64,000 bases of DNA from a virus (IMGVR_UViG_3300017560_000307); one strand, 5' to 3'. Shown: positions 19,893 to 44,626, counted from the first letter of the stretch. Translations and numbers: made by a program. The notes: generated from the letters alone by a model not told the origin.

Positions 19893-19945
19893 CTCCATTT
19901 CTGCCCGTGTGGGCGTGTGCCTTATGGCTGTCTCTCTCCTTCTCC
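19893..19945 (-). promoter_or_regulatory. conserved leader motif copy F (GAGAGAGACAGCCATAAGGCACA…GCCC-N4-GGGC hairpin…AGAAATGGAGG)
   Basis: The reverse complement of 19893-19945 nearly matches the leaders at 42228, 43706 and 44153. Confidence 0.45.
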
Positions 19946-19953
19946 AGGACGCG

Positions 19954-20448
19954 CTAGGCTTCCTTTTTGGCTTCGTCCAGCTGTTCCTGGGCCAGGGCAG
20001 CGAGTTCAGTTTTATATTTGTCGACCAGGAATGAGAGGACGAATTGCTCGTTCTGGACCTCAAGATCTGAGTTGAGCACCCCGGTCTTGATAAGCGTCTT
20101 GGTTTCCTTGTCGAATGCCTTTTTGGCGAGTAGTGATAATCTGCTCATGAATGAGCCTCCTTTAGAGAATGTAATAGTTTTGGTCCCTTTGGAACCGGGC
20201 GTGGTGTCAACGTCGTATATGAGATGAGGGACTGGGGTGACGGATGGGGTGGTTACAGGTGTTTCTATTTCCCATTCATCGCCCAAGTTTTGGCACATCA
20301 CAGTATTTCCTATGTAGATCCTTTGACAACCAAGATCGTGATCTACCCCCTCTACGGTAAACGTCTTACCAACCATCTGTTGTTCGGTAACGCCGGAGCC
20401 TTGGGTCACCCGAACGATGTCTCCTACTTGTGTTATCTGTTTTGTCAT
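19954..20448 (-). CDS. hypothetical protein
   Basis: 164 aa, lying in the minus-strand operon. Confidence 0.45.
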   Translation of the reverse strand: MTKQITQVGDIVRVTQGSGVTEQQMVGKTFTVEGVDHDLGCQRIYIGNTVMCQNLGDEWEIETPVTTPSVTPVPHLIYDVDTTPGSKGTKTITFSKGGSFMSRLSLLAKKAFDKETKTLIKTGVLNSDLEVQNEQFVLSFLVDKYKTELAALAQEQLDEAKKEA

Positions 20449-20643
20449 TTACCTCCGTTCTTTGATTTCTTCTATGGCGGATTTTGCGACGTAGGTCAGC
20501 TCACCCCGCTTGTTCCTGAATTGAGGAACGGTCGTCCCATCGTCATCAGTCAGGGTGAGAATCTCTCCCTTCTTCATGCGGGATCCGTAGTTCGTGATGA
20601 GTCGGTATTGCTTACCGGCCTCGAGCTTCACCGCGGCGTTCAT
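20449..20643 (-). CDS. hypothetical small protein
   Basis: 64 aa. ATGA overlap with the upstream gene. Confidence 0.4.
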   Translation of the reverse strand: MNAAVKLEAGKQYRLITNYGSRMKKGEILTLTDDDGTTVPQFRNKRGELTYVAKSAIEEIKERR

Positions 20644-20993
20644 GGCTGCACCTTTCGTGGTCGACCAGGCTTACGCTTGACTGGTTGGGTCTCGGCCGGT
20701 GTCTCTATCTGAGAAGAGTTGTTGACCACAAACTTCCTGGGCTCGGTATAGAGCGATGTGAGTCTGTCTTGGTCTTTCTGTAAGTTCTTTGACAGCGGTT
20801 GGCCGAAGGCTCCGACGCGATTCAGGACCATGGCAGATCCAAATCCCAAGACTGCACTAAAGGCCAAGGTAAGGATTGTTTCAATTTGCATGTATTGATT
20901 CACCTCCTTTAGGTAGCTTTGCTTGTAATTCGACGATAGTGTTGCGGGACCAGATAACCTGCTCTTCCAGGCCCAGGGCGAATCGCCCACCAC
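20640..20993 (-). CDS. membrane protein with AT-hook-like C-terminus (probable true start ATG 20891 with SD AAGGAGGTG)
   Basis: An internal Met is preceded by a strong SD. That start overlaps the upstream gene stop by 11 nt. The C-terminus is KRKPGRPRKV. Confidence 0.45.
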   Translation of the reverse strand: MVGDSPWAWKSRLSGPATLSSNYKQSYLKEVNQYMQIETILTLAFSAVLGFGSAMVLNRVGAFGQPLSKNLQKDQDRLTSLYTEPRKFVVNNSSQIETPAETQPVKRKPGRPRKVQP

Positions 20994-21087
20994 GTCGCTC
21001 CTTTCTCAGTTTTTTGAGGAGGAAGAAATATCGGAGATTTGCTTCCGCCAGTTCCTGATGCAATGTTGTTTGGGCAGTGTGTGACAT
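20881..21087 (-). CDS. hypothetical small basic protein
   Basis: 68 aa. Coupled to the downstream gene through an ATGCAAATTGA overlap. Confidence 0.4.
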   Translation of the reverse strand: MSHTAQTTLHQELAEANLRYFFLLKKLRKERRGGRFALGLEEQVIWSRNTIVELQAKLPKGGESIHAN

Positions 21088-21099
21088 AGAGGTTCCTTT

Positions 21100-22017
21100 C
21101 TAATGCTCCTGGGCCGCCAGATTGGCGAAGTCATCATCGACAGACTCGGTTGAGCCGTCCGGGTTCGTTTTTATTGTGGGTTGCTGGAATAGTGCTTCTG
21201 CTTCGGCCCACATATCTGGATCAACATCATCTGGTGCTGGTCGGGCTGGAGTAGATGAAGCAGCTGGGGTTGCATCTTCCTGATTGAGCATGGCTCGCCA
21301 GTCACTGTTCTTGCTGTGGAAGTAGCAGATGATGTGGCCATCGTGATAGTGGCGGGTCTTCTCTGCTTTTGAGGCCCAGACCGTATTTTTGCAGTCATGT
21401 ATCTCGCACGGAAGATCTGTTGCTTTTCCTGCAGATACAGCGAGATGATTCTGTGCCGGAGTGACAGCGGGATGGCTAGATTCTTTGCTGTCTAGAGGTT
21501 TAGATGTCTTGACAGGAGGGTGACTTGATGGCAAAGTTCCGGCCGGTTTTGATGGTTGATTTGGAGTTCTTACTCGTTGTTTGTGGTGCTCGTCGGAGTC
21601 CGCATCCTTAGTGTCGTCGATCAGGAACATGCCATTGAGTGAGTATTTTCGGGCATAGGAGCTAGTAGCCCCGGTTACCTGGGACGCGTCCATCCCCTTC
21701 TTTGATTCATCCTCTCTTGCAAGTGCGGTTGTGACCTTTGTCCCTTGACCGTGGATGTCTTCAAGGGTGGATATCGCCCTGATGTAGTAGCGATCACCTG
21801 TCAACACCAGCTCATCAACCTGAGTTAGCACCATGTCGTATTTGATGAGTAGCGGCTTTACCGCCTCAAGGATGGACTCATTACTTCGGTATTTGAATCC
21901 ACCAAAGGAATTGTTAAGATCCTTAGGTGCCTTCAACTCCGCCTGGATGAGTCCCAGACGCTGCAGAAAGGTCATTTCAACAGATTTCTCTTGTGGAGCA
22001 GTCTTGGTTTCTGGCAT
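21100..22017 (-). CDS. ERF-family single-strand annealing protein (recombinase)
   Basis: GATSSYARKYSLNGMFLIDD matches the ERF signature YARKYAL. First gene of the minus-strand operon, downstream of an AT-rich promoter region. Confidence 0.6.
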   Translation of the reverse strand: MPETKTAPQEKSVEMTFLQRLGLIQAELKAPKDLNNSFGGFKYRSNESILEAVKPLLIKYDMVLTQVDELVLTGDRYYIRAISTLEDIHGQGTKVTTALAREDESKKGMDASQVTGATSSYARKYSLNGMFLIDDTKDADSDEHHKQRVRTPNQPSKPAGTLPSSHPPVKTSKPLDSKESSHPAVTPAQNHLAVSAGKATDLPCEIHDCKNTVWASKAEKTRHYHDGHIICYFHSKNSDWRAMLNQEDATPAASSTPARPAPDDVDPDMWAEAEALFQQPTIKTNPDGSTESVDDDFANLAAQEH

Positions 22018-22283
22018 AGAATATCCCCCTTATTATTTCCATATCTGTGATAGAGCTGTGGCAGCCAGGAGGCCCCAGAAGATTCCTTGGGCAATCTGGT
22101 ATGGGGTTATCCCAGCCTTGACGGCTAACTTGCGAGATGGTGTATAGATGTATTTGGTATTCATAGTGTTTATGGGTTATAGATACATCATATAGATTTA
22201 TTTAACATATGTCAATATGCCAATTTAGACTATTGATTTAATGTTGGGAATATGCATTAATAGATGTAATTACTCAACTGCCC

Positions 22284-23069: not shown

Positions 23070-23180
23070 TGAAGTTACGCATAAGCAAGTTCTATGTAGT
23101 GCAGCATACATGGGGATATAAAGATCGATTTCAGGAGCTGCATTCTGGAGTCGATCTTTTTGTTTACCATGAATGCATAA

Positions 23181-23925: not shown

Positions 23926-23954
23926 TTGACATAATTACTAAATGAGTGTATAAG
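23926..23954 (+). promoter_or_regulatory. sigma70-type promoter, family copy 1 (TTGACA-N17-TATAAG)
   Basis: -35 TTGACA at 23926-23931, a 17-nt spacer, -10 TATAAG at 23949-23954. Upstream of the gene at 23963. Confidence 0.55.
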
Positions 23955-23962
23955 GAAAGTAT

Positions 23963-24265: not shown

Positions 24266-24392
24266 ACATGTAACCATTTAAACATCTGTACATCTAGCGG
24301 CGTCATCTTCCCCCTTAGGTGGCGTTGCTTGACCTACAGATGTTTAGGGGACCATCAGGGAACATTGCCACCGGTAATCGACTCCCGCTGTT

Positions 24393-27937: not shown

Positions 27938-27946
27938 CCAATATAC

Positions 27947-28021: not shown

Positions 28022-28094
28022 ACGCTCATAGCTCAGTGAATAGAGCAGTTGCCTTCGAAGCAGCAGGTCGGAGGTTTGAATCCTTCTGGGCGTA
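28022..28094 (+). tRNA. tRNA-Arg: tRNA-Arg (TCG)
   Basis: D-arm AGCTCAGTGAATAGAGC, anticodon loop CTTCGAA, T-loop TTTGAAT, CCA encoded. Confidence 0.65.
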
Positions 28095-28099
28095 CCAAT

Positions 28100-28172
28100 G
28101 CTTCCTTAGCTCATCAGGTAGAGCGGCGCACTTGTAATGCGCTGGTACGGGGTTCGAGTCCTCGAGGAAGCC
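28100..28172 (+). tRNA. tRNA-Thr: tRNA-Thr (TGT)
   Basis: Acceptor GCTTCCT/AGGAAGC, anticodon stem-loop GCGCA-CTTGTAA-TGCGC, T-loop TTCGAGT. Confidence 0.65.
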
Positions 28173-28176
28173 CCCT

Positions 28177-28250
28177 CTTGGCGTAGAGTAGCGGACGTAC
28201 TCGCTTCCCTTGGAAGGAAGAAATCGCTCGTTCGAATCGAGCCGCCTTGA
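28177..28250 (+). tRNA. tRNA-Pro: tRNA-Pro (TGG), acceptor stem with two U-U mismatches
   Basis: D-arm GAGT/ACTC, anticodon CTTCC-CTTGGAA-GGAAG, T-arm GCTCG-TTCGAAT-CGAGC, CCA encoded. Acceptor pairs 2:71 and 3:70 are mismatched, so it may be a pseudo-tRNA. Confidence 0.45.
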
Positions 28251-28254
28251 CCAT

Positions 28255-28326
28255 GGGTCTCTAGCACAACGATAGTGCAGCATCCCTGCAAGATGAAGGT
28301 TCTCAGTTTGAATCTGAGGAGATCCA
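28255..28326 (+). tRNA. tRNA-Ala: tRNA-Ala (TGC)
   Basis: Acceptor GGGTCTC/GAGATCC, D-arm GCAC/GTGC, anticodon loop CCTGCAA (C at position 33), T-arm CTCAG-TTTGAAT-CTGAG, CCA encoded. Confidence 0.5.
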
Positions 28327-28333
28327 CCAATTC

Positions 28334-28407
28334 GGGCTCGTCGCATAGCGGCCTATTGCAGCGGACTCTTAATCCGCCTTTCCCTGGTTCAAATCCAGGC
28401 GAGCTCA
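28334..28407 (+). tRNA. tRNA-Lys: tRNA-Lys (CTT)
   Basis: Anticodon stem-loop GCGGA-CTCTTAA-TCCGC, T-arm CCTGG-TTCAAAT-CCAGG, CCA encoded. Confidence 0.65.
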
Positions 28408-28414
28408 CCAGTTT

Positions 28415-28485
28415 GGGGATGTAGTGAAATGGCATCACGCTTGGTTTTCAACCAGGTATCCAGGGGTCAGAACCCTGCTTCCCTA
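28415..28485 (+). tRNA. tRNA-Glu: tRNA-Glu (TTC)
   Basis: D-arm GTGA/TCAC, anticodon CTTGG-TTTTCAA-CCAGG, T-arm CAGGG-GTCAGAA-CCCTG, CCA encoded. One acceptor mismatch. Confidence 0.5.
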
Positions 28486-28491
28486 CCATGT

Positions 28492-28564
28492 GTCCCTGTC
28501 GTCTAGAGGACCAGGACACCACCCTCTCAAGGTGGAAACCGGGGATCGTGACCCCGTGGGGATA
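28492..28564 (+). tRNA. tRNA-Glu: tRNA-Glu (CTC)
   Basis: Bacterial tRNA-Glu-like D-arm GTCTAGAGGACCAGGAC, anticodon CCACC-CTCTCAA-GGTGG, T-arm CGGGG-ATCGTGA-CCCCG, CCA encoded. Three G-U pairs in the acceptor. Confidence 0.5.
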
Positions 28565-28571
28565 CCAATAT

Positions 28572-28643
28572 GCCTTCCTAGCTCAGAGGCAGAGCAGCGT
28601 CTTTACACGGCGACGGTCGGGATTTCAAAATTCTCGGAGGGTA
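28572..28643 (+). tRNA. tRNA-Val: tRNA-Val (TAC)
   Basis: D-arm AGCTCAGAGGCAGAGC, anticodon loop TTTACAC, CCA encoded. Imperfect T-stem. Confidence 0.45.
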
Positions 28644-28650
28644 CCAGTGA

Positions 28651-28722
28651 CCCGTTGTGATGAAATTGGCATCATGCCTCCCTGTTAAGGAGAGATTCTA
28701 GGTTCAAATCCTAGCATCGGGG
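28651..28722 (+). tRNA. tRNA-Asn: tRNA-Asn (GTT)
   Basis: D-arm ATGA/TCAT, anticodon CCTCC-CTGTTAA-GGAGA, T-arm CTAGG-TTCAAAT-CCTAG, CCA encoded. Confidence 0.55.
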
Positions 28723-28728
28723 CCATAT

Positions 28729-28800
28729 ATCCGCGTAGCTCAAGGGACAGAGTGCCACTCTGCGAAGGTGATGATGCATGTTCGATTCATGCCGTGGATA
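28729..28800 (+). tRNA. tRNA-Arg: tRNA-Arg (GCG)
   Basis: Acceptor ATCCGCG/CGTGGAT, anticodon loop CTGCGAA, T-arm GCATG-TTCGATT-CATGC, CCA encoded. Confidence 0.5.
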
Positions 28801-28806
28801 CCATTT

Positions 28807-28878
28807 GCGATCATAGCTCAGTGGTAGAGCGCAGCCTTGTCACGGCTGAGGCCGGCGGATCGTTCCCGCCTGGTCGCG
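28807..28878 (+). tRNA. tRNA-Asp: tRNA-Asp (GTC)
   Basis: D-arm AGCTCAGTGGTAGAGC, anticodon CAGCC-TTGTCAC-GGCTG, T-arm GGCGG-ATCGTTC-CCGCC, CCA encoded. Confidence 0.65.
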
Positions 28879-33615: not shown

Positions 33616-34421
33616 CCTACTGTCTGCTATCGATGAGTGACGCTGGTCACAAGGACGGGAGACACATGCCAACGAAGCAACGCATTATCGCAATCGCGTC
33701 GCAGAAGGGTGGGGTGGGGAAAACCACTTCCACACTCAATATCTCGGCAGAGCTGGCGGCTGCGGGTCAACGAGTACTGATGGTCGATCTCGATCCCCAG
33801 GGCCACCTGGCTGAGGGATTGGGTATTAGCGCAGTAGATCTCGAGCACGAAATATCTGAAGTTCTCTTGCGCGAGACCTCGCTCGCTGACATCATCCTGC
33901 AGGTCAGGGAAAATCTCGACCTGGCACCTGCCAATATCCGGCTGGCCACCATCGAGGGGGTCTTGTTTGGTGCTCCACGTCGGGAAGACCGTCTCAAGCA
34001 GGCGCTGGAGACCGTCCAGGGCCGCTACGACGTCGTTTTGATCGATTGCCCACCCAGCCTTGGCAATCTCACCGTCAACGCCTTCTCGGCCGCCACAGAG
34101 GTTCTCATTCCCATGGCTGTGGAGTTCTACTCCCTGTTGGGGGTGCAGCTACTCCTGGACTCCATCACGAATGCCAGGATGGAGATCAACCCCAAGTTAC
34201 ACCTGCTCGGTATTCTACCCACCAGGATGAACCGAACCAATCATGCCGCCGCGGTACTGGAGAAAGCCCGGACGGACTGGCCAGAGGTTCATCTCTTCGA
34301 GCCGCCGATACCAGAAGCCGTCGCGGTGAGAGACAGCGTGGCAGCCGGGCAACCGCTCCGGGAGTTCAACCCGGTGTCCCCCGCAACTAAAGCCTATGCC
34401 ACGATTGCCAAGGAGTTCTAG
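33564..34421 (+). CDS. parA: ParA-family partition ATPase (likely start ATG 33666)
   Basis: Deviant Walker A IAIASQKGGVGKTT. 251 aa from the probable start. Confidence 0.75.
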   Translation: MSGKLYVQDMLTSRHLDAYCLLSMSDAGHKDGRHMPTKQRIIAIASQKGGVGKTTSTLNISAELAAAGQRVLMVDLDPQGHLAEGLGISAVDLEHEISEVLLRETSLADIILQVRENLDLAPANIRLATIEGVLFGAPRREDRLKQALETVQGRYDVVLIDCPPSLGNLTVNAFSAATEVLIPMAVEFYSLLGVQLLLDSITNARMEINPKLHLLGILPTRMNRTNHAAAVLEKARTDWPEVHLFEPPIPEAVAVRDSVAAGQPLREFNPVSPATKAYATIAKEF

Positions 34422-34423
34422 TC

Positions 34424-34696
34424 ATGGCCCGTAAACCATCACCTGTCGCCTCCCGCCAGACGAATAAGCCGGCCGCGGATGAGTTTTGGCAGAAGTCTCC
34501 TGATGAAGATGAAACTGATGAGATTATAGAAATCCAACCCAAAACCAAACGAACGTATCACCTGCCAGATACCACTCCCCAGCTTCTGATGAAAATCCAG
34601 CTGAAGAGATATTTGGATACTGGCAAAAAGACGGACTACTCGGATCTGGTGAGTGAGGCTGTTGAATACCTCGCCGCAGCCGAAGAGGTTAAATAG
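34424..34696 (+). CDS. small partition-associated (ParB/ParG-like) protein
   Basis: 90 aa, immediately downstream of parA with a 2-nt gap. Confidence 0.4.
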   Translation: MARKPSPVASRQTNKPAADEFWQKSPDEDETDEIIEIQPKTKRTYHLPDTTPQLLMKIQLKRYLDTGKKTDYSDLVSEAVEYLAAAEEVK

Positions 34697-34880
34697 TCAC
34701 TACTACCCTCGGGGCTCACGGTATGTCCAACTTGTCATGAGATCATGACTTTTAACGCAGTGTCATATACTCTGTTACCAGCTGGGAGACAATACGTGGT
34801 GCTGTGCTTGTTGAGTACTCTGCGCGCCCATTCTTGATGGCTGACTAGAAGCACACTAATCCTAACTCCAGGCGGCAAGC

Positions 34881-35789
34881 ATGGCTGAAGACGAACTCAA
34901 GTCAAAAACCTTCGAGGGATTCTCCAGTCCCAACTATACCCAGGTGCCCGACGCCCTGTTCGACTACCTCTTGCCCGATCTCTCCGAGATAGAAATCAAG
35001 GTGCTGCTCTATATCATCCGCCGCACCTTCGGTTTCAAAAAGGACTCCGACAACATTTCCCTCCGTCAGCTCTCCGAAGGGATCACCACCAAAGACGGGA
35101 AGCAGCTGGATCGGGGAACCGGACTCTCCAAGTCCGGGGTTACCAAAGCCCTCCTGAGCCTACGCAAAAAAGGCATTCTGATCCGCTATCGCAACTCGGA
35201 CACGGTGCGGGGATCCACCCCCACCACCTACCGGTTACGCATGGCCGGTGATCCCCTGGATAACCAGGATGAAGTGCCCGATGTGGGAGATTACCCCCTG
35301 TCCACAGGTGTAGACACCCCTGTCCACAGGCGTGGACACCCCCTGTCCACAGGTATAGACACCCCTGTCCACGGTGGTAGACAGCCCCTGTCCACAGGCG
35401 TGGACACACAAGAAACAGTTAAACAACAAACAGAAGTTAGAGAAAGAGATCTCGAATTTTCGAATGGTCGGGTGGTCAGAATTAATTACTCGGAGACCCG
35501 GCGCGCGCTCCAACCGTACATCGAAGACTTTGCGCGAGAATTCGGGGATGAGGCCAAACTGTCATCCTCACTCAGCCGCGCCGTCAATCTCTGCGATCGC
35601 AGCGGTCTGGACATCGATGAGTTTATTGATGTGCTCCTAGCTGCCCGAGCCAAGACCAAGGAAAAATCGGCATCGATCAGCAAGCAAGCCGGCGATGGGG
35701 GAATGTGGGGAACGAAGAAAAACCGGATGCCCTATTGGTTCAAAATCGTCGAAGACATGCTTGGTCTCAAGGACCAGCAATCTGGATAG
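34881..35789 (+). CDS. phage replisome organizer / replication initiator (winged-helix N-terminal domain) with internal iteron array
   Basis: IEIKVLLYIIRRTFGFKK…ISLRQLSEGI…KSGVTKALLSLRKKGIL matches the phage replisome-organizer N-terminal domain. The central region PLSTGVDTPVH x4 is encoded by DNA iterons. Confidence 0.6.
   Translation: MAEDELKSKTFEGFSSPNYTQVPDALFDYLLPDLSEIEIKVLLYIIRRTFGFKKDSDNISLRQLSEGITTKDGKQLDRGTGLSKSGVTKALLSLRKKGILIRYRNSDTVRGSTPTTYRLRMAGDPLDNQDEVPDVGDYPLSTGVDTPVHRRGHPLSTGIDTPVHGGRQPLSTGVDTQETVKQQTEVRERDLEFSNGRVVRINYSETRRALQPYIEDFAREFGDEAKLSSSLSRAVNLCDRSGLDIDEFIDVLLAARAKTKEKSASISKQAGDGGMWGTKKNRMPYWFKIVEDMLGLKDQQSG
35294..35407 (+). repeat. five tandem 22-23 bp iterons (CCCCTGTCCACAGGYRTRGACAC) inside the rep gene; candidate origin
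   Basis: Direct repeats at about 35294, 35318, 35340, 35363 and 35385. The core TGTCCACAGG is near-palindromic. Confidence 0.6.
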
Positions 35790-35818
35790 CCATCAAGACA
35801 TCCTGATGCCTTGATGGC
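35789..35818 (+). terminator. hairpin GCCATCAAG-n12-CTTGATGGC after the rep gene
   Basis: 9-bp stem whose loop contains GACATCCTGATG. No strong T-run. Confidence 0.3.
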
Positions 35819-36486
35819 TCACGGGCGCTTTCAAAGACTGTAATTCACCAGGCAGATAATGTACCTGGCGGGAAATAGTTGACCACTTCCTCAGACGTAA
35901 TCGCCCCCCCCTGAAATCGCGGAGACACCTGGACATTTGTGTGCTAACCGCGCCACCTCATCAACGTCCAGACAATGACGACACCCTGAATCGAATCAGG
36001 ATGGCCAACGTTTCAGGTCAGCGGTGCCCAAGACCGGAGCCTGCCGGGAGCCTCTGTCGGTGCAGAAGGAGCAGGGGCGATCATGGGTCAGGTAAGGGAA
36101 TCGATCACGCCGAGGAACGTCGTCTTATCTATTGTACCTCTCAATGTTCCATACATCGGTTAGAGATACCGGTAAACGCTAAGGTGAAACCTTTACCGGT
36201 AGTGTGTCTGGAGTGCATGCAACGCAATTACGCTGATTATTGAGAGCGACTTTCCCTGAATGCGAAACAGGCATCCATAACGGCTTGACGTATCCATCCT
36301 GTGATGCTATTTTGGGTCATGTAACCCTCTCGTGGCCTTCGGGCCACACTTTGTGACAGCCTCTGTCACCTTCTTAACTGCCTTCGTTGCCACCTTTTTC
36401 GGCAACATCAACGATCACATTGGGTGATCGCCTGAACGGTAGTTCATGGTCTCTGATGACCATGGAAAGGTGATAGTCATGCGCTG

Positions 36487-37626
36487 TTGTATTCCCGACT
36501 CCAAAAAATATGCACGTGGCAGCCCGAATATTCTGCCCGCATCCTCGCTGTGAGCATGCGGTTAGTGAGCAATCGGTCTACTTGTGGTACCTCCCGTTTT
36601 TCCATTCGTCAAAGCACAGAAAGGTCACAAACCATGGCAGCTCCAAAATTCGACAAGAAGGTGAAATTCGTTGCAAGCGACTGGGATGACGATTTCGGCA
36701 GTGACTGGGACGAGGATTCCAGCCTGGTGTCGTTCCCTAATTCCCGGAATACGAGGCGGGTATCAGGTGGCACCACACTGGTGGATCCCAATGGGAATCG
36801 CCAACGCTTCAATCCCCGGACAGGTCAATACGAGATCTTGGAACCCGAGGATGAGGATCCACAGATGATGATCTTCGCCGAGGAAGAGCGCCGCCTGATT
36901 CGCCAGATCCAGCGAACGGGTGAGCGGGGCGGACTGGCCGTAGCGGCCACCAGGGACGCCTTCCGCGGTCTCTACGGCAACCAGGGGCTTGGTGGACTCC
37001 GTGCCTGGCTCGCGACGTTCTTCATGAACTTCCGGATTGTTAATCCCGCCACCAAGTCGGACATGTACCGGCTGGTTGAGGAACTGTCGGCCCTGCGGGA
37101 GAAGCGCAGCATCTACCAGGCCAACAAGACCCAGCAGGTCATTGATGTCCAGATGGCGGGCTATCGGAACGACATCGACGGCATCGACCGCCAGCATGGC
37201 CGGGTCCAGGCACTGGAGGACCTCCGGCTTGAGGTCTACGCCGCGGACCAACGAGGTGAGGTAGCCAACAAGTACGCGAACCTCGAGCACCAGCGATATA
37301 TGGAGTCGTTGCAGGCCGGATATGATCATGAAAGGCAGATGAAGCAGATGGACCACGACTTCGAGCGAGACATGACACTGGTGAAGGAACTGCGCCGGAT
37401 GAGGGCTGACAATAACAACCTGGAGATGATCAAGGGCGACATGGGCGCAAGGCAGACGGTGAAGACGATCAATACCATAATCGAGGAATTCGCCCCCTTG
37501 ATGGAGGGGAAGTCACCGGAGGATCAGGTTGCCCTGGCACCCAACTTCCTCCGCAGGGTGGAGGCAGCAGCCAAGCTGCTGGATGAGCAGATGCGCCGGC
37601 TGACGACCTATGAGGATGAAGACTAG
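36487..37626 (+). CDS. hypothetical coiled-coil protein (likely start ATG about 36634 after SD GAAAGG)
   Basis: The N-terminal 49 aa of the ORF overlap a hairpin-rich leader. The remaining 330 aa are acidic and helical. Confidence 0.45.
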   Translation: MYSRLQKICTWQPEYSARILAVSMRLVSNRSTCGTSRFSIRQSTERSQTMAAPKFDKKVKFVASDWDDDFGSDWDEDSSLVSFPNSRNTRRVSGGTTLVDPNGNRQRFNPRTGQYEILEPEDEDPQMMIFAEEERRLIRQIQRTGERGGLAVAATRDAFRGLYGNQGLGGLRAWLATFFMNFRIVNPATKSDMYRLVEELSALREKRSIYQANKTQQVIDVQMAGYRNDIDGIDRQHGRVQALEDLRLEVYAADQRGEVANKYANLEHQRYMESLQAGYDHERQMKQMDHDFERDMTLVKELRRMRADNNNLEMIKGDMGARQTVKTINTIIEEFAPLMEGKSPEDQVALAPNFLRRVEAAAKLLDEQMRRLTTYEDED

Positions 37627-37704
37627 TGAAGTGCTGACCCGGCCCGGTTGACTATCGGGCCGGGCGATCCTGACAGGCAATCCCCATAGGCAAGGAGATC
37701 ACTG

Positions 37705-39483
37705 ATGGCTATTGAAATCGGCATGAACGAGAACGAAGAGGTGGTCGAGGTTCGGGATCCCCAGTGGAGCATTCACACCATTGGTAACCCTGGAACAGGC
37801 AAGTCCTTCTTCCTTGGTGGCCTGTGCGAGCAGGCGGCGGATCAGGGGGATGGGGTACTGGTTCTCGATCTCAAGGACGGCCATCTGGCCAAAACCATTG
37901 CCTCGCGGACGAAATATCCGGAGCGGGTGGTCTATGTGGCTCCGGGACTTTCGCCCAAAGGGATGACCTGGGGAATCAACCCGTTGCATGGCAATCCAAC
38001 ACTGGTGGTCGATAACGTCCTGGAGATGTTCGATCGTACCGGGGTGTTTGTCGAGACCATGACGCAGGTGAAGCAGTACCTGACAATGGGACTCTGGCTG
38101 GCCCTGGAGGATGATGCTCCCACCCTGAAAACGGTCCTGGATATCCTGGTGCGTCCCGAGGAGCGTCGGCGATTGATCCGGCAGGCAATCGAACAGGACA
38201 CGCTCGACCCGGACATCATCTATTTCTGGACCGACTTCGAGGCGCAGAACCGGGGGGACCAGAACAATAACCGGGTCCAGCGGGATGCCGTGGCGTCGAC
38301 CGCGGTGCGGTTGCGGGAGTTCCTGATCGGGGATCCGGTTGGTGCCTGTCTCAAGCACCCTCAAAACACCTTCTTGCTGCAGGAATGGCTCGATGCCGGC
38401 AAGATCGTCATCTGCGATTTGGTCTCATCGAGAGAGGGTACCCCGCATCGGCAGTCTCGCCGGCTGGGCAATGTGATCATGGCCATGTTCGTCAATGCGG
38501 CCGCGGCCCGGATGGATGTAGGGCCTGACGATCGTTCCTGGCGCCTGCTGGCCGATGAATTCGACCAGCTGGCGTCCGAGACCTTTGTCCACTCGATCGA
38601 CAAGCTGCGGGCTGCAAAGGTCATCCCCGTCCTGGCTCACCAGAATTTCGAACAGATCGGGAATCGACGGTTGAATGCGTCTCTCTCCTCGCAACCCGCC
38701 AAGGTCTACTTCCGAATCGCGGCCGCGGACCGGGCCTCGATCATCCATCGCTTTGGGCAGGAGGAAGCCAGGGTATTGATGAACCTGCCGAACTACCACG
38801 CCAGGTTGTTGCAGCCGCCGGCCAATGAAGATACGGGTATTCGTCACGTTGTTGCGTATCTGCATAAGAAGAAGGATCCGATGGTGGAGAACCAGGGTGT
38901 GACGGTCAGGATCACGCCGCATCTGGGGGAGGTGGTGGATGGGCAGTTATCCCGGGTGATCGCCAATTCCCACCGGTATCTGGTCACCCGGCATGATTCA
39001 ATAGAAGGGTATGACTATGGCTTCCCCGACGACGATACAGCAGACGATGAAGGAGGATTCTTCCTCGACGACGAAGCGGGAGAAGAAGTCACGCCAGGGC
39101 CGCGTCGTCCTCAAGGAGGAGCTGGTGGCCAAGGTGTGGCCCTTGCAGGCGATCCGGGCCGGGGAGGATATATTGCTGGCCTTGAACAGGCACCGCTTCC
39201 TCACCAATCTCCAGATAGCGGATCTGCTGTTCCGGGGGACGATAAACAGTCACAAGAAGATCTACAGCGAAGCGGGGGCGAAGGACGCCGCCGACCTGTC
39301 GTTGAAGCGCCTGTTCGAGTCGAGGCTGATCGAGAGGATGATGGTCTTCCAGACCAGCCGGACCAGGGACAAGGCGACGGGCAAGACCACAGGAAACATC
39401 GTCCGGGCACCGGTCAACATTCTGACCAAGGAGGGGACCAGGATAGTGCGGGCAATGCTCGAGGAAAGATCCGACCTCGTTGA
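37705..39483 (+). CDS. P-loop ATPase of TraD/VirD4/FtsK-HerA type (conjugative coupling-protein-like)
   Basis: Walker A GNPGTGKS, Walker B RLLADEFDQL, AHQNFEQI motif. The acidic low-complexity tail overlaps the next gene for about 470 nt. Confidence 0.5.
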   Translation: MAIEIGMNENEEVVEVRDPQWSIHTIGNPGTGKSFFLGGLCEQAADQGDGVLVLDLKDGHLAKTIASRTKYPERVVYVAPGLSPKGMTWGINPLHGNPTLVVDNVLEMFDRTGVFVETMTQVKQYLTMGLWLALEDDAPTLKTVLDILVRPEERRRLIRQAIEQDTLDPDIIYFWTDFEAQNRGDQNNNRVQRDAVASTAVRLREFLIGDPVGACLKHPQNTFLLQEWLDAGKIVICDLVSSREGTPHRQSRRLGNVIMAMFVNAAAARMDVGPDDRSWRLLADEFDQLASETFVHSIDKLRAAKVIPVLAHQNFEQIGNRRLNASLSSQPAKVYFRIAAADRASIIHRFGQEEARVLMNLPNYHARLLQPPANEDTGIRHVVAYLHKKKDPMVENQGVTVRITPHLGEVVDGQLSRVIANSHRYLVTRHDSIEGYDYGFPDDDTADDEGGFFLDDEAGEEVTPGPRRPQGGAGGQGVALAGDPGRGGYIAGLEQAPLPHQSPDSGSAVPGDDKQSQEDLQRSGGEGRRRPVVEAPVRVEADREDDGLPDQPDQGQGDGQDHRKHRPGTGQHSDQGGDQDSAGNARGKIRPR

Positions 39484-40147
39484 TGAGATCCGGTGGACGC
39501 CGCGACTGCGTCAGTTCGCCGACCAGAGTATTGATCACCAGCTGGAGATCAACGATGCCATCATCGCGCTCATCCGGGGCACAGACAGAACCGGCGCCGC
39601 CAAGGTGCTGAACTGGTTTGACGATGACCTGCTCTCGAAGCGGACCCGGTTCAAGGGGTTTATCCCTGACGGTTTCTGCTTGGTGCAAGTGGTAACCGGG
39701 AGTGAGGATGATCCTGATGTCAGAATCTTTCCCCTGTTCCTGGAGATCGATCGCGGGACGGAGACGATCAAGAGTGGCGGTAAAGGGGGACGGGACTGGT
39801 ATTCCAAAATCCGCCGCTATGGTAACTATTTCGCCATCGAATATCCGAGAGACCCGTTCTACCTGACCCTCGGATTCACGCCGGAGGAAGTGAATTTGTT
39901 TGAAGCACCAAGGGTTTTGACGATCACAACCAATCCAAACCGGGTAGAGAAGATGATTGCGACCACGCATAAAGCCCAGGGGTCCAGCGCCTACTGGTAC
40001 GCCTCCAGGGAAGATGTGCACGACACCCCGAACGCCATCATGGGTGAGGTATGGCGGAATCCGATGTTGGCCTATCCCCACAAGAAGCGGCTCGATGTCC
40101 ATCTTCTGGGATTGCCGGAAATCGGGCCCGACTACTCCTTGTTTTGA
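39011..40147 (+). CDS. replication-relaxation family protein
   Basis: WPLQAIRAGEDILLALNRHRFLTNLQIADLLF is typical of the Replic_Relax winged-helix N-terminus. Confidence 0.5.
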   Translation: MTMASPTTIQQTMKEDSSSTTKREKKSRQGRVVLKEELVAKVWPLQAIRAGEDILLALNRHRFLTNLQIADLLFRGTINSHKKIYSEAGAKDAADLSLKRLFESRLIERMMVFQTSRTRDKATGKTTGNIVRAPVNILTKEGTRIVRAMLEERSDLVDEIRWTPRLRQFADQSIDHQLEINDAIIALIRGTDRTGAAKVLNWFDDDLLSKRTRFKGFIPDGFCLVQVVTGSEDDPDVRIFPLFLEIDRGTETIKSGGKGGRDWYSKIRRYGNYFAIEYPRDPFYLTLGFTPEEVNLFEAPRVLTITTNPNRVEKMIATTHKAQGSSAYWYASREDVHDTPNAIMGEVWRNPMLAYPHKKRLDVHLLGLPEIGPDYSLF

Positions 40148-40879: not shown

Positions 40880-41410
40880 ATGGATAGTTTATTTCAACAA
40901 TATCTGGAAGTGATAGACGAGCGTCAGATATTCCATGCAAGAGAGTTTGGGGACCGTATGGAGAAGATGGGATACGTGGTTGATTCGTTCGATCTGGAAG
41001 GTGAGCAACGAAGCTGCTTCTTTACGGATCCTGACATCTTTCGTCCAAATTCAGCGGTTGTCACTATTACGTATCCAGAGCTGCGAAGGCACAAGATCAA
41101 GCTTTTAGGTCATGGGTGTTCTATCTGTATGTCTGATATAGATGAGAAGTGTCTCGAATGTGGGGGATTGAGGGGGTATACGCCGATGGCAGATACTGGT
41201 CCTGAATATAGTCCAGAGGACCTCGTTGGTGAGTGGCCGGAGTGGCTGTGCTTCTGCCACCAGTTTATGCCATATCCAAGGATGCATTATGGCTGTGAGT
41301 TACATGAGCTAGACAAGAAAATTGCGCGTGAACTCCATGAGGAGCGTGAGAAGGTTGAAGAGCCGGCGGAAACCTGGGATACAGTTCCGTTTTCAGTCTT
41401 CCACAATTAG
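40880..41410 (+). CDS. hypothetical protein with Cys-rich zinc-ribbon-like motif
   Basis: CSICMSDIDEKCLECGG. Preceded by a conserved leader that is duplicated at 42000. Confidence 0.45.
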   Translation: MDSLFQQYLEVIDERQIFHAREFGDRMEKMGYVVDSFDLEGEQRSCFFTDPDIFRPNSAVVTITYPELRRHKIKLLGHGCSICMSDIDEKCLECGGLRGYTPMADTGPEYSPEDLVGEWPEWLCFCHQFMPYPRMHYGCELHELDKKIARELHEEREKVEEPAETWDTVPFSVFHN

Positions 41411-41423
41411 CCTGACTTGAAAG

Positions 41424-41450
41424 GGGCGCTTGCAAGGGCGTCCCTTTTTT
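41424..41450 (+). terminator. intrinsic terminator
   Basis: GGGGCGC-ttgcaagg-GCGTCCC followed by TTTTTT, directly after stop 41410. Confidence 0.55.
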
Positions 41451-41628
41451 CATAGTCGCACTACCTGCTTTAGCTGTCGCTTGGCAAGCCTGCGCTCTCG
41501 TCCCGAGTGGCTGTCTGGTCTCTCGACCTGCTGAGCCTGTGTTTTCAAGGCCCGCTGTACGGCCTTGGGCCAAGCCCAAGCCCCCCGGGGCTGGTACCTG
41601 CCGACCTTCACGGTTCGTGGTTATGCGC

Positions 41629-41656
41629 TTGACACAGGCTAATCCGCCTGTATAAA
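41629..41656 (+). promoter_or_regulatory. sigma70-type promoter TTGACA-N16-TATAAA
   Basis: GCGCTTGACACAGGCTAATCCGCCTGTATAAAGCGC. Confidence 0.4.
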
Positions 41657-42033
41657 GCGCTCCGCTGCGGTTGCTCCTGCCTTCATGGCCGATACGCGAT
41701 TGCTCATCCGCAATCGCTCCAGGGAGCGTGTGAAGTAATTGGAGATCCTGAAGGGTCGGGGTGAGTGTTAGTCGAACTGTCGAAGAGTCGAAATAATCGA
41801 TACCAGAGGGCTTGCGAGCGGGGTGTGTTCTTTCTGTTCTTCTCATGATCAGTGGTAGTCCGTTGGCAAAAATGATGGGCTGGGGCGGTCTTTACAGGGG
41901 CTAGAGCGGCGATCCGGGGGTGTCGTGGTGGTCGTTGGGTACTGCGGTTTTTGCCAACTCAGTGGAGTCGAAAAGGGGGATGGAATTAGTGAGAGGAGCA
42001 GTACAGAAAGTACACACAATCAATCCCTAGGAG

Positions 42034-42231
42034 GTGATGAACATGGATCCAAAACTTGAGACCCAGGCAGTGGCCGAGGTGGTTGAGGCCATGATGGACC
42101 TGATGAAGGAGCAGGGGTTTTTACCCGTGCCAGGTGACTACGTCGAGAAGCGTGACACATTGGGTGAGTCGCATATGATCCGATTCCAGAATGCACAACA
42201 GGTGCTGATTGTGATTACCGTGGAGACCTAA
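42034..42231 (+). CDS. hypothetical small protein
   Basis: 65 aa with SD AGGAGGTG. Confidence 0.4.
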   Translation: MMNMDPKLETQAVAEVVEAMMDLMKEQGFLPVPGDYVEKRDTLGESHMIRFQNAQQVLIVITVET

Positions 42232-42288
42232 GGAGAGGGAGAGAGGCAGCCATAAGGCACACGGCCGAGAGGCTAGATATGGGGAAAA
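42228..42288 (+). promoter_or_regulatory. conserved leader motif copy A
   Basis: GAGAGAGGCAGCCATAAGGCACAC…GGCCGAGAGGCT…ATG. Confidence 0.45.
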
Positions 42289-42591
42289 ATGACTAAAGGA
42301 ATGTCTTATATCAGTCGGGTAACTTCCGGCGACGGGAGCGTGTCGCATGCGGGTGACTGGAAGATCGTGGGGCTGACGGAAAAGACCGTCAAGCTGGAGA
42401 TGATCGTGCGACCCAAAACTATCTGGGGAGAGTATGGCTTGGCCAGAGACGCCAAGGTCGGGGATGTAGTCCTTGTGAAGCGAGACAGTAGTGGCCGCCA
42501 TGCTGTGAGAGATTGGGGTGATGGAACCTTTACCATCTACGCCAACCGGGATGGAACACCTCACTCCTTTGAGCCCATGACTTCGAACTAG
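42289..42591 (+). CDS. hypothetical protein
   Basis: 100 aa. Confidence 0.45.
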   Translation: MTKGMSYISRVTSGDGSVSHAGDWKIVGLTEKTVKLEMIVRPKTIWGEYGLARDAKVGDVVLVKRDSSGRHAVRDWGDGTFTIYANRDGTPHSFEPMTSN

Positions 42592-43043
42592 CAGGATGAA
42601 GGTAGAGAGACACCGCCCAAGTGATATGCCTAATCTGAAAGCCCTCTGGATGATTTGCCGCCCAGGGGGCTTTTCTGTGGTCAAGGTTTCTCCGCATGCG
42701 TAAAGTCGGCCTTGCGTGATCGCACAACCTCCTAAACGCCCGGAGCGGGTGGCTACCGAGCAGTCACGGCAAAGCCGCGCCTCATCGTCACGCCACCGTG
42801 AAGTCGTGGAGGAGATACCAGAGGGCTTGCGAGTGTGGGGAGTGGAGACTCCGTCGCAACCACCTGCTGGAGAGATGTAATTTTATCAGAGCAATCAAAA
42901 GCCGCTTCGCTCCTTCTTTTGACAGCTCTGCTATCTGTTCTTTTGATCCAGCAGGAGGATGCTGTCTGAATATTGGGGTGCGGGACTAAACCTATAGTGT
43001 GAAAATATGGGCAAGGCTAATGAGAGATACAAGATTTGGTGTA

Positions 43044-43072
43044 TTGACATAATAGTATAATATTGATATGAT
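43044..43072 (+). promoter_or_regulatory. sigma70-type promoter TTGACA-N17-TATGAT
   Basis: GTATTGACATAATAGTATAATATTGATATGAT. Promoter family member. Confidence 0.45.
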
Positions 43073-43123
43073 ATATATGTATCCAAAAGAGATACAGCAC
43101 ATGAACAATCGAATAGAAAAGAG

Positions 43124-43330
43124 GTGATAAGTATGAATGATAAAGAATCATTGAAGATGGAAGCCGACATCTATCAGAAGCGAATGGATGCTATTGCTGA
43201 CATGACGGTCTTCCTGACAAACGAGGGGCTGGCCATAGCCAACAGGGCTGCAGAGCTATCCCAGAGGTATGAAGAACTTCAAAAATTACGCGACGAAGTA
43301 TTAGAGAAGCTGGAAGCTCAGCCAGAATAG
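43124..43330 (+). CDS. hypothetical small protein
   Basis: 68 aa with SD GAGGTGA. Confidence 0.4.
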   Translation: MISMNDKESLKMEADIYQKRMDAIADMTVFLTNEGLAIANRAAELSQRYEELQKLRDEVLEKLEAQPE

Positions 43331-43704
43331 TGTGTTGTGGGCGAGCGGGTGGGCGCTCGTACCAGTGGCGGAAGTGCATAAGCGATACGGCCGAGAGGCT
43401 AGAACGGGGGTCTATGCAGCGAGTAAATACAGGGTTCAGAGATAAGACTGGGACTGAGGTCTTTACCGGTGACGTGCTTGAGTTTTCGATTACATGGATA
43501 AACGGCGACGGCTACCGTCATGTTCATCAAGTGGTGGAACAAGGTGAAGATTTCAGGCTTGATACAGGCTATCGAGTTGAGTTTAGAGCGGGAAACAGCG
43601 ACAGGATTACGAGAGAAAACGGTCGTTCACTGAGGTCAATGCGTATGGAGTATGGGCGAGTGATTGGGACGGCTCAAGACAATCCAGAGCTGTTGACGGC
43701 TTGA
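43330..43704 (+). CDS. hypothetical protein (likely start ATG about 43408 after leader motif copy E)
   Basis: MQRVNTGFRDKTG…. Confidence 0.45.
   Translation: MCCGRAGGRSYQWRKCISDTAERLERGSMQRVNTGFRDKTGTEVFTGDVLEFSITWINGDGYRHVHQVVEQGEDFRLDTGYRVEFRAGNSDRITRENGRSLRSMRMEYGRVIGTAQDNPELLTA
43375..43407 (+). promoter_or_regulatory. conserved leader motif copy E (partial)
   Basis: GATACGGCCGAGAGGCTAGAACGGGGG, nearly identical to the 3-prime part of copy A. Confidence 0.35.
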
Positions 43705-43705
43705 G

Positions 43706-43760
43706 AGGAGGAGAGAGACAGCCATAAGGCACATACCCATATGGGTAGAAACGGAGGCGC
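43706..43760 (+). promoter_or_regulatory. conserved leader motif copy B
   Basis: GAGAGAGACAGCCATAAGGCACATACCCATATGGGTAGAAACGGAGGCGC then ATG. Confidence 0.45.
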
Positions 43761-44150
43761 ATGCAATTCAGTAAGGACGAACTAGAAACCATCCTGAATG
43801 CTCTCAAATACACATACGAGGGCATAGACGGGGACATGGGCGCAATGGGCGACAAGGAGGCTAATGCCGAGCTTGGGAAGCTTGACTGGCTTATCAAGAA
43901 TATCGAGGCCGGCGATGAATCTATTCCCGACTTCAGTGGATTATTTGAGCAGAACCCAGCGACATTTATTACATGGCTGATGGAGGAATTCCGTAGCGGA
44001 GATGAGAGCTGGCAGCACCATTTATCTGAAGACGACCGCCTTGAGCTGTTCGTCTCTATGCCAACAGGGGCCAGCGACCTCACTTATAAGCTGTTCCAAG
44101 AGGTCTGCGACAACTATGGGGAGAGTCTGACTGACGTACTGAATCGGTAG
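43761..44150 (+). CDS. hypothetical acidic protein
   Basis: 129 aa. Confidence 0.45.
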   Translation: MQFSKDELETILNALKYTYEGIDGDMGAMGDKEANAELGKLDWLIKNIEAGDESIPDFSGLFEQNPATFITWLMEEFRSGDESWQHHLSEDDRLELFVSMPTGASDLTYKLFQEVCDNYGESLTDVLNR

Positions 44151-44152
44151 AG

Positions 44153-44209
44153 CAGGAGAGGAGAGAGATAGGAAAAGCCATATGCCCTCAGGGGCAGAAA
44201 CGGAGTTGC
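44153..44209 (+). promoter_or_regulatory. conserved leader motif copy C
   Basis: GAGAGAGATAGGAAAAGCCATATGCCCTCAGGGGCAGAAACGGAGTTGC then ATG. Confidence 0.45.
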
Positions 44210-44536
44210 ATGAAACATTACCTAGCAGACTTCATTTGCCAGGACGGAGCCCACCAGCATAGCTACCAAGCTCTTATCCGGGCCTATGACATGGAGCAAG
44301 CCAAAACCATTGCCCAGTCCCACGAATACGACTGTGGTGATGATGACGGCCATGACTGGGACTACAGTGACAACCTTCCTCTTACGGCCTTTGGAGACGG
44401 ATTGACAGCCTGCCGGCTACGAGATGTCTCCGAGATAGATGTTACCGCCTATGATGCCTTGAAAGCGCTGGGCGTGGTCACAGAGATTGACCTGGTTGTG
44501 AGAGTCGCCATTCCAGAAAAACATACGAATGTCTAG
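44210..44536 (+). CDS. hypothetical protein
   Basis: 108 aa. Confidence 0.45.
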   Translation: MKHYLADFICQDGAHQHSYQALIRAYDMEQAKTIAQSHEYDCGDDDGHDWDYSDNLPLTAFGDGLTACRLRDVSEIDVTAYDALKALGVVTEIDLVVRVAIPEKHTNV

Positions 44537-44563
44537 GTGTTTAGATTTTTAGATGTCTGGATG
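44526..44563. promoter_or_regulatory. operator-like ACATC/GATGT repeats
   Basis: GAATGTCTAGGTGTTTAGATTTTTAGATGTCTGGATGG. Confidence 0.4.
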
Positions 44564-44564
44564 G

Positions 44565-44626
44565 GTAAGGAGGAGGGGAGAGCGGTTCAAAAGAGATATG
44601 CCTGAATTGGGCAGAAATGGAGATGA
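44565..44626 (+). promoter_or_regulatory. conserved leader motif copy D
   Basis: GGGGAGAGCGG…GATATGCCTGAATTGGGCAGAAATGGAG then ATG. Confidence 0.4.

Follow-up and report, generated by a model that had tools for sequence, protein, structure and literature searches.

A shared leader in front of six unrelated small genes

The sequence analysed here (the window) is a 64 kb stretch of viral DNA, IMGVR_UViG_3300017560_000307, covering about half of a 124-kb metagenomic contig (ENA ERZ27256359). Six of its small genes, located at 19616-19888 on the minus strand and at 42289-42591, 43414-43704, 43761-44150, 44210-44536 and 44627-44932 on the plus strand, were each found to be preceded by a copy of the same composite leader. 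A covariance model built from ten leader copies (R1) identified six full copies with scores of 50.9-75.5 bits, with the next best match on both strands of the 64 kb scoring 13.6 bits. Each of the six copies ends in a start codon, and the orientation of the leader is that of the gene in all six. By BLASTP, the proteins encoded downstream are not similar to one another (best E 0.42). The regions ahead of the six starts, once aligned, had a mean column identity of 68-73%, and the mean ungapped identity of the copies was 0.46 across the leader, compared to 0.30 over the 60 bases that open the coding sequence and 0.27 farther upstream. Since the proteins are unrelated and identity is at the random level just outside the leader, the likeness can be attributed neither to gene duplication nor to a generic Shine-Dalgarno (SD) sequence.

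The leader is thus confirmed as a real element shared by six unrelated small genes, as the initial annotation of this sequence had proposed for the same six starts, and the similarity extends well beyond an SD sequence. Other details of that annotation required revision. The common 5’ sequence it described corresponds to a 23-mer, GAGAGAGACAGCCATAAGGCACA, which occurs three times in the window with at most one mismatch (19916-19938 on the minus strand, 42239-42261 with one mismatch, and 43711-43733) against none expected in 100 shuffles; it is diverged in the copies of genes 44210 and 44627, and the copy of gene 43414 carries a different 5’ module. The GC hairpin, placed 4-8 nt after the shared sequence, was found to lie 1 nt behind the 23-mer, and the third start, given as about 43408, is the ATG at 43414. 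A second small hairpin within the 23-mer (GCC-ATAA-GGC) and a seventh, partial copy at 46296-46324 had been missed.

In 5’ to 3’ order along the strand of the gene, the leader consists of a 5’ module, a first hairpin (H1), a second hairpin (H2), the block AGAAAYGGAG(G) and the start codon. Two types can be distinguished by the 5’ module. In type A it is a purine tract, GGAGRGGAGAGAGRCA, situated just past the stop codon of the upstream gene, while in type B it is a hairpin (H0, AGCG-GGTGGG-CGCT), present once in the window (43342-43359) and three times in the related element L008, with a stem extension that pairs GGAG with CUCC or UUCC. H1 has a stem of 3-4 bp with a C-G closing pair and an ANAA loop, the variants being GCC-ATAA-GGC, TGC-ATAA-GCG, GTGC-ATAA-GCAC, GCGC-ATAA-GCGC, TTC-AAAA-GAG, CAC-ACAA-GTG and GCCC-AAAA-GGGC. 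Four to eight unpaired bases separate it from H2, a GC-rich stem of 4-5 bp closed by a 3-6 nt loop of no fixed sequence, GAGA being commonest and GNRA loops being frequent. The AGAAAYGGAG(G) block abuts H2 directly and is followed after 3-4 nt by ATG, GTG or TTG.

Three copies are full type-A leaders. That on the minus strand (19886-19948; 75.5 bits with R1, 41.5 bits with R2) possesses a purine tract at 19929-19945, H1 (GCC-ATAA-GGC) at 19919-19928, H2 (GCCC-ACAC-GGGC) at 19903-19914, the block AGAAATGGAGG at 19892-19902 and a GTG start codon at 19886-19888. The leader of gene 42289-42591 (42229-42291, plus strand; R1 71.4 bits) has its purine tract at 42230-42248, H1 at 42249-42258, H2 (GGCC-GAGA-GGCT) at 42263-42274, AGATATGGGG at 42275-42284 and ATG at 42289. 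The third, in front of gene 43761-44150 (43701-43763, plus strand; R1 72.2 bits), has a purine tract at 43703-43720, H1 at 43721-43730, H2 (ACCC-ATAT-GGGT) at 43735-43746, AGAAACGGAGG at 43747-43757 and ATG at 43761.

The single type-B leader of the window precedes a YopX-like gene, 43414-43704 (43342-43416, plus strand; R1 50.9 bits), and comprises H0 (CGAGCG-GGTGGG-CGCTCG, that is CGAGCGGGTGGGCGCTCG) at 43342-43359, H1 (TGC-ATAA-GCG) at 43375-43384, H2 (GGCC-GAGA-GGCT) at 43389-43400, AGAACGGGGG at 43401-43410 and ATG at 43414. Two diverged type-A leaders complete the set. The first (44151-44212, plus strand; R1 60.0 bits; gene 44210-44536) has a purine tract at 44155-44170, a degenerate H1 region at 44171-44179, H2 (GCCC-TCAG-GGGC) at 44184-44195, AGAAACGGAG at 44196-44205 and ATG at 44210, and the second (44566-44629, plus strand; R1 60.6 bits; gene 44627-44932) has a purine tract at 44567-44582, H1 (TTC-AAAA-GAG) at 44586-44595, H2 (GCCT-GAATT-GGGC) at 44600-44612, AGAAATGGAG at 44613-44622 and ATG at 44627.

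The partial copy (46296-46324, plus strand; R2 14.8 bits) consists of the 3’ module only, with a hairpin GCGG-CCTAG-CCGC that holds the upstream stop codon in its loop, followed by AGAATGGAGG and a GTG at 46322; the orthologue of its gene in L008 (13582) is preceded by GCGGC-ATA-GCCGC and then AGAAACGGAGG. Purine tracts were also found as orphans right after stop codons, at 42598-42612, 56643-56651 and L008 15869. The first of these, GAAGGTAGAGAGACA (plus strand), stands just past the stop of gene 42289-42591 with a terminator-like hairpin next to it and no downstream start, and the second, AGAGAGACA (plus strand), overlaps the stop codon of gene 56246-56644 and is followed by a hairpin and then a TTGACA promoter. 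At several gene ends that have no downstream leader the sequence GAGAGACA was identified.

Folding of the leader and its relation to the ribosome

Covariance analysis of the leaders, suggested in the initial annotation as a check, supported both hairpins. For H2 (19 distinct copies), 93.4% of cells were paired and 13 were changed on both sides, giving a covariation score of 0.529 compared to 0.193 in shuffles, with none of 500 shuffles scoring as high; when the 3’ partner was slid by 1-3 columns as a control, pairing was 16-55%. The five unpaired cells come from 5-bp stems that are shifted in register in the model alignment. In all 22 copies with a 3’ module, a hairpin with a stem of 4 bp or more ends exactly where the AGAAAY block begins, with 10 distinct stems among them, while such a hairpin is found at only 3.8% of window positions. 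The 19 stems scored contain 71 Watson-Crick and 5 G.U pairs, and hence no A.C oppositions. For H1 (16 distinct sequences, five non-fitting ones included), 77% pairing was obtained compared to 50% in shuffles, with 14 double changes, and again none of 500 shuffles reached the observed score.

The G.U pairs of the hairpins are formed on the sense strand only. As this is so, and as the loop of H2 varies in length, the structure would reside in the mRNA and not in a DNA palindrome, and covarying hairpins of this kind imply that the whole leader must be transcribed and folded. The comparative evidence thus indicates a leader folded as sense-strand RNA. In most of ten minimum-energy folds the AGAAAYGGAGG block and the AUG were unpaired, and type-B leaders were predicted to fold as three tandem hairpins. 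Among the orthologous leaders of the 44210 family (window, L008 and L002), whose proteins are about 67% identical, the H2 stem and SD block are unchanged while the loop varies (TCAG, TGAC, GTCA). A reverse-strand terminator reported by the scan at copy 44210 was rejected, being the same H2 hairpin read backwards.

Duplex energies with the anti-SD sequence were computed with an assumed CCUCCUUUCU-type 16S tail. With this tail, the type-A purine tract gave -9.7 to -16.4 kcal/mol, compared to -7.5 +/- 3.0 for the same region of 82 other genes, and the proximal SD gave about -12.5 kcal/mol, compared to -9.4 +/- 3.0 in other genes. The block AGAAA-Y-GGAGG is the complement of CCUCC-UUUCU broken by one pyrimidine, while other genes of the window use (U)AAGGAGG-type sites that do not have the extra Y. 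In the type-A consensus no ATG, GTG or TTG occurs within 15-20 nt past the purine tract, the exception being copy 44210, in which a non-conserved, out-of-frame ATG is situated about 13 nt past it; a leader peptide was dropped as a candidate for these reasons. The leader also predicts true start codons. For the C5 DNA methylase of L008 (10390-11370), translation from the leader-predicted TTG at 10390 gives a full-length PF00145 match from residue 1, and the database gene call, which begins 72 nt later at 10462, is corrected accordingly.

Operon context, relatives and gene exchange

A family of near-identical, near-consensus sigma-70-like promoters (GTATTGACATAATA..., TTGACA-17-TATGAT or TAATAT) was identified in AT-rich spacers of the window. 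One of these (43044-43072, plus strand; TTGACA-17-TATGAT, 11 of 12 matches) is located upstream of an operon with four leaders, with sister promoters found by the promoter scan at 45336-45364 (plus strand), 22215-22187 and 17881-17853 (both minus strand). A further member lies at about 56690 (plus strand), and promoters of this type are also present in L008, L012 and L017. The four-leader operon appears to be closed by a terminator-like hairpin, AAAGCCTCC...GGAGGCTTTC (about 44941-44976, plus strand), which was read from the sequence and was not reported by a simple terminator scan. The minus-strand leader stands within a unit that runs from the 22215 promoter to a terminator at 17990-17967. 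For the copy at 42289, which follows gene 42043-42231 and whose own gene is followed by a terminator-like hairpin, no upstream promoter was located. As the promoters at 43044 and 22215 precede four leaders and the minus-strand copy, respectively, at least five of the six leaders are intra-operonic. They occupy gaps of 56-90 nt, with several neighbouring genes overlapping or abutting. The promoter scan identified strong promoters elsewhere and none inside any leader.

In every relative, the first gene past the early promoter was found to encode a protein of 65-76 aa, helical or coiled-coil-looking, whose position is conserved and whose sequence conservation is low (window 43133-43330; L008 8031-8261; L012 12530-12739; L013 13875-14071; L017 3716-3925). 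The first leader always directly follows this gene, and its product is a candidate regulator. Furthermore, a non-coding block is conserved in four related elements (window 42680-43040; L008 7345-7940; L012 13880-14215; L017 5220-5410), situated between a terminator and the early promoter and downstream of TrwB-like and Replic_Relax genes. It contains an inverted repeat, CCTGCTGGAG (42863-42872) ... TCCAGCAGG (42947-42955), and is a candidate for an origin, either of transfer or of replication, or for a regulatory site.

Relatives of the element were recovered by exact-pattern and protein-based searches. All are known from metagenomes only, and the leader family is small, with six elements. About 20 further leaders were identified with R1 and R2 in L001, L002, L008, L012, L013 and L017, most of which carry the 3’ module; separation with R2 was clean, with 19 copies at about 27-41 bits and the next best match at 16.6. 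A common backbone of ParA, a RepO-like protein, a 592-aa protein with a faint TrwB-type match and Replic_Relax is followed in these relatives by a run of small genes.

Comparison of the copies showed that their parts are separable. The 3’ module occurs alone in the 46296 copy, L001a and L002a, that of L002a being located inside the 3’ end of the upstream open reading frame (ORF), and H1 together with the 5’ block is absent from L001a, L002a, L008 10003 and L013 15139, copies that are otherwise intact. In L017 the purine tract and H1 are separated by an inserted canonical sigma-70-like promoter. Modules have also been swapped: gene 42289 is preceded by a type-A 5’ module in the window and its orthologue in L008 by one of type B. 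The window and L008 have six backbone genes in the same order, with different genes between the leaders, the positional counterpart of gene 44627 in L008 being the C5 DNA methylase. Because the modules are separable and swapped, the 5’ module moves together with the end of the gene before it and the 3’ module with the start of the gene behind it, and these comparisons indicate that gene exchange has occurred at the leaders. Genes linked to leaders include those for C5 methylase, an NPPY-motif DNA methyltransferase, RadC, and DUF1281-like and YopX-like proteins, a set that resembles those of establishment and anti-restriction regions (PMC11541004).

Database searches placed the leader in no known family. 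At gathering thresholds, Rfam 15 returned only 11 tRNAs over the whole window. With E up to 10 (42000-45000, 19700-20100 and L008 7900-10500) chance matches were obtained, none over the SD-proximal H1/H2 core, and the only overlap was a 14.8-bit match to a long non-coding RNA (gathering score 40) that extends into the 5’ part of the L008 8732 leader. Megablast of 41000-46000 found no match among GenBank phages, and blastn of one leader found none among PLSDB plasmids. A search of related phage genomes had been proposed for this element; leaders were present in the metagenomic relatives, and GenBank phages gave no match. The 592-aa protein had PLSDB matches at 23-26% identity only, and the DNA polymerase of the window is about 30-35% identical to phage proteins at best. 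IMG/VR contained no exact copy of the 21-nt stretch GAGAGACAGCCATAAGGCACA, which is shared by several leaders, and no protein related to that of gene 44210 or to the 592-aa protein, and GTDB genomes likewise contained no exact 21-mer. Genome relatives of the 592-aa protein were limited to a Sphaerobacteraceae metagenome-assembled genome (MAG; 30-35%) and a Taylorbacteria MAG (24%; L016); near such relatives R1 found no leader in L014 or L015 and R2 none in L014-L016.

Several candidates were rejected. IMG/VR pattern matches (type B block; H2 plus SD; L019-L023) were judged to be chance, as R2 finds no leader there. A riboswitch or ribozyme (preQ1, guanidine-II, pistol, hammerhead) was dropped, with Rfam empty and the modules individually dispensable, and so was a CRISPR-repeat mimic or Cas6-type site (a hairpin followed by an A-rich 8-mer), the stems differing between copies and no Cas6 having been seen.

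Plasmid-like genes stand beside phage genes in the window (33666-40147 and 55069-55905). The former comprise ParA, the RepO-like protein, the 592-aa protein with its faint match to the coupling protein TrwB, Replic_Relax, ArdC-N, SSB, a ParE toxin and a resolvase, and the latter a Dit-type tail component, a minor tail protein and a CHAP/amidase endolysin. The element is possibly a phage-plasmid. In L012 the same module abuts ABC-transporter genes. An array of 11 tRNAs (28022-28878, plus strand) is located directly upstream of a DNA polymerase III alpha-type gene (29269-32643). An RNA-repair-like cluster (60217-63707, plus strand) encodes a TROVE/Ro60-type protein (60217-61698), a 224-aa protein and an RNA ligase (62433-63707), and continues in L011 (8348-9244) with a PNKP-like kinase/phosphatase; a gap of roughly 540 nt (59679-60216) lies upstream of the TROVE gene, and no Rfam Y-RNA family match was obtained. 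The left end (1-1092, minus strand) encodes a protein with a protein-kinase domain (Pkinase, E 3.7e-9), and the window also encodes a PP2C-type phosphatase.

Interpretation and comparison with known systems

The reading that we favour, with a chance of about one half of being correct, is that the leader is a transcribed, modular, cis-acting translation-initiation leader that travels as a cassette together with the early-type accessory genes that a phage/plasmid-like element carries and serves also as homology for gene exchange. Its hairpins would keep the true SD and the start codon single-stranded and shielded from the upstream coding sequence, and H2 may stack on the SD/anti-SD helix. The start-less SD-like tract may hold terminating or standby 30S subunits, or protect the mRNA as STAB-SD does, while in type B a hairpin sequestering GGAG takes the place of the purine tract. 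The net effect would be strong, independent translation of each imported gene in a polycistronic early transcript, and the recurring 20-60 nt at gene boundaries would provide homology for cassette swapping.

Several observations weigh against this reading. The proposed mechanism derives entirely from the anatomy of the leader. Individual folds were found to be only weakly more stable than shuffles (z -0.1 to -2.9), which is to be expected with stems so short. The conserved Y between AGAAA and GGAGG breaks the pairing with the assumed tail. Five copies, spread over three elements (window, L001 and L002), have exactly the same 21-mer despite an identity of only about 67% between the linked proteins, and the loops of H1 (ANAA) and H0 (GGTGGG) are kept in sequence. 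Such conservation exceeds what an insulating hairpin would need and points to recognition by a factor. A translational operator, in which an RNA-binding protein or small RNA of phage, plasmid or host would read the ANAA loop of H1, the 21-nt block or the GGUGGG loop of H0 and so switch a regulon of accessory genes, would account for it; H1 loop and closing C-G pair are kept across types A and B, GCGAGCGGGTGGGCGCT, the type B block, does not differ between the window and three L008 copies, and SAS/ESAS, the start-associated sequences (SAS) of mycobacteriophages and their extended form (ESAS), have been proposed to act likewise (PMC3203893). We nevertheless consider an operator unlikely, as the Pfam and PHROG scans revealed no candidate RNA-binding protein in the window except the TROVE/Ro60 protein, the loop of H2 varies freely and the four copies noted above are missing both H1 and the 5’ block. 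Alternatively, the leader could be a processing or stability element at which an endoribonuclease cuts the polycistronic transcript, with the hairpin or the ribosome-occupied tract shielding the products from 5’-end-dependent decay. The location of leaders between cistrons, the start-less tract with its strong anti-SD complementarity and the presence of short, stable hairpins, frequently with a GNRA loop, directly 5’ of the ribosome-binding site are consistent with this, and there are precedents in STAB-SD (attributed to Agaisse and Lereclus 1996) and in the B. subtilis hbs mRNA, on which initiating ribosomes block RNase J1 (PMC5737220). Processing is rather doubtful, since the window revealed no nuclease gene, the leaders show no evident consensus for cleavage and the orphan purine tracts ahead of terminators would protect nothing.

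Of the three options offered by the initial annotation, a translational operator and an RNA-processing site are thus compatible with covarying hairpins that contain sense-strand G.U pairs, while the third, a middle or late promoter for a phage-specific sigma factor, activator or RNA polymerase with the hairpin as the 5’-terminal stem-loop of the transcript, is very unlikely. The conserved block of about 21-23 nt has no sigma-70 hexamers, an xATAAx element 0-10 nt upstream of H2 makes a start near H2 conceivable, and a gene for a polymerase or sigma factor could lie in the other 60 kb of the contig. However, the stem of H1 overlaps this -10-like ATAA and covaries, and the H0 extension of type B pairs with varied sequences, so that the region upstream of H2 is constrained as RNA. 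Module combinations and spacings differ among copies, a canonical promoter has been inserted within the L017 leader, at least five of the six copies stand inside sigma-70-type operons, and the conserved blocks show complementarity to the anti-SD; the 25 of 47 Pfam families listed for the 88 window ORFs include neither an RNA polymerase nor a sigma factor. T7-type promoters have a conserved block upstream of a purine-rich (GGAGA-type) start, and N4-like promoters have a hairpin of 5-7 bp with a 3-nt loop. In the leader the conserved sequence lies downstream of the GGAGA-type tract, the opposite order to T7-type promoters, and neither its hairpin geometry nor its block order appears to fit promoters of T7-like or N4-like phage RNA polymerases. 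A site acting purely at the DNA level, such as a repressor site resembling stoperators or a recombinase site that moves cassettes, with its proximity to the ribosome-binding site incidental, is highly improbable. It would explain why leaders are intergenic and always oriented with transcription, why the gene content of relatives differs exactly at leaders and why GAGAGACA marks gene ends that lack a downstream leader, and the window does encode a serine recombinase (Resolvase plus HTH_7). A DNA palindrome, however, predicts A.C-type oppositions as often as the sense-strand G.U pairs (5 in H2) that make up the non-Watson-Crick pairs, and a dimeric DNA site would not be expected to have a loop of 3-6 nt and free sequence. 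H2 moreover abuts the SD block in every copy with a 3’ module, and no long attC-type inverted repeat is present. Promoter and DNA-level site are therefore the readings least compatible with the covariation and modularity observed.

An extension of the favoured translation-initiation reading, which we regard as speculative and improbable, is that the leaders are boundary units of a plug-and-play gene-cassette system in the entry (leading-type) region of a phage/plasmid, in which each imported anti-defence or establishment gene would bring a self-contained RNA device that is itself the crossover site at which cassettes are shuffled. The start-less SD would capture terminating ribosomes, or be the cut site of a dedicated nuclease, and the insulating hairpins and standardised ribosome-binding site behind it would then allow immediate translation regardless of neighbours. 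If true, such a system would be comparable to an integron that has no integrase and would be a natural counterpart of synthetic ribosome-binding-site insulators.

Known systems resemble the leader in part. Integron attC sites are imperfect R''/L''...L'/R' inverted repeats, 57-141 bp long, that lie at a cassette’s 3’ end and are served by the IntI integrase, unlike the leader, which folds with no long-range inverted repeat; no tyrosine integrase was present among the 25 of 47 Pfam families listed for the window. Lambda-type nut sites, each a boxA sequence with a boxB hairpin behind it, occur in one or two copies past early promoters, while there are at least six leader copies, each before a start codon, and no boxA-like conserved block was noticed on reading the leaders, N-like and Nus factors not having been examined. 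The STAB-SD of Bacillus mRNAs, attributed to Agaisse and Lereclus (1996), is reportedly a start-less SD-like sequence that stabilises mRNA through 30S binding. The leader likewise has an SD-like tract with no start codon upstream of the true ribosome-binding site, capable of pairing with the 16S 3’ end, but this tract is mostly situated inside a polycistronic transcript after a stop codon, recurs in front of many genes and goes together with hairpins. Stoperators, 13-bp DNA sites to which the repressor binds, have neither RNA structure nor any link to start codons; they share with the leader the presence of many short asymmetric copies in intergenic gaps, oriented with transcription; those of Cluster A mycobacteriophages have been contrasted with SAS (PMC3203893). 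The promoter-early stem-loops (PeSLs) of T4-type phages are terminator/promoter composites at points of gene exchange (PMC2839356; PMC4122927). Like the leaders, they are short composite motifs between small variable ORFs at which related genomes swap genes. Unlike PeSLs, the leader has no sigma-70 promoter, its H1 and H2 stems of 3-5 bp are followed by AGAAA and not by a U-run, and its core is a ribosome-binding region.

SAS/ESAS and PeSLs are the closest analogues, with SAS/ESAS the closest of all. These elements of Cluster K mycobacteriophages are repeated and start-associated, with a function proposed to be translational (PMC3203893), and such repeated sequences have been known in phages since 2011, with their function still awaiting a test (PMC12699233). 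Both they and the leader are asymmetric repeats that stand in one orientation, a few bases upstream of start codons whose genes are non-structural and unrelated, have an SD core embedded in conserved flanks that the SD does not explain, and carry an extra upstream module on roughly half of the copies. The GGAG of the leader, 3-4 nt from the start codon, falls in the position described for SAS (3-8 nt upstream of the start), but the 13-bp SAS consensus GGGATAGGAGCCC, at up to 2 mismatches, was seen in no leader sequence read, the leader block being AGAAAYGGAGG. ESAS is a 17-bp imperfect inverted repeat in which changes do not support RNA pairing and for which its authors favoured DNA binding (PMC3203893), while the leader stems are of 3-5 bp and covary as RNA. 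The leader further adds an SD-like purine tract after stop codons, and it differs in host group and in belonging to a phage/plasmid-like element. No Rfam 15 family, GenBank phage or PLSDB plasmid matched the leader in the searches made. A translation signal is here tied to the exchange of gene cassettes in a region where methylase, RadC, ArdC and SSB-type genes abound, which is of relevance to the rapid expression of establishment genes by mobile elements (PMC11541004; PMC13478746). With its separable parts, two RNA hairpins backed by covariation and a start-less SD-like tract after stop codons, the leader represents a clearer case than SAS/ESAS.

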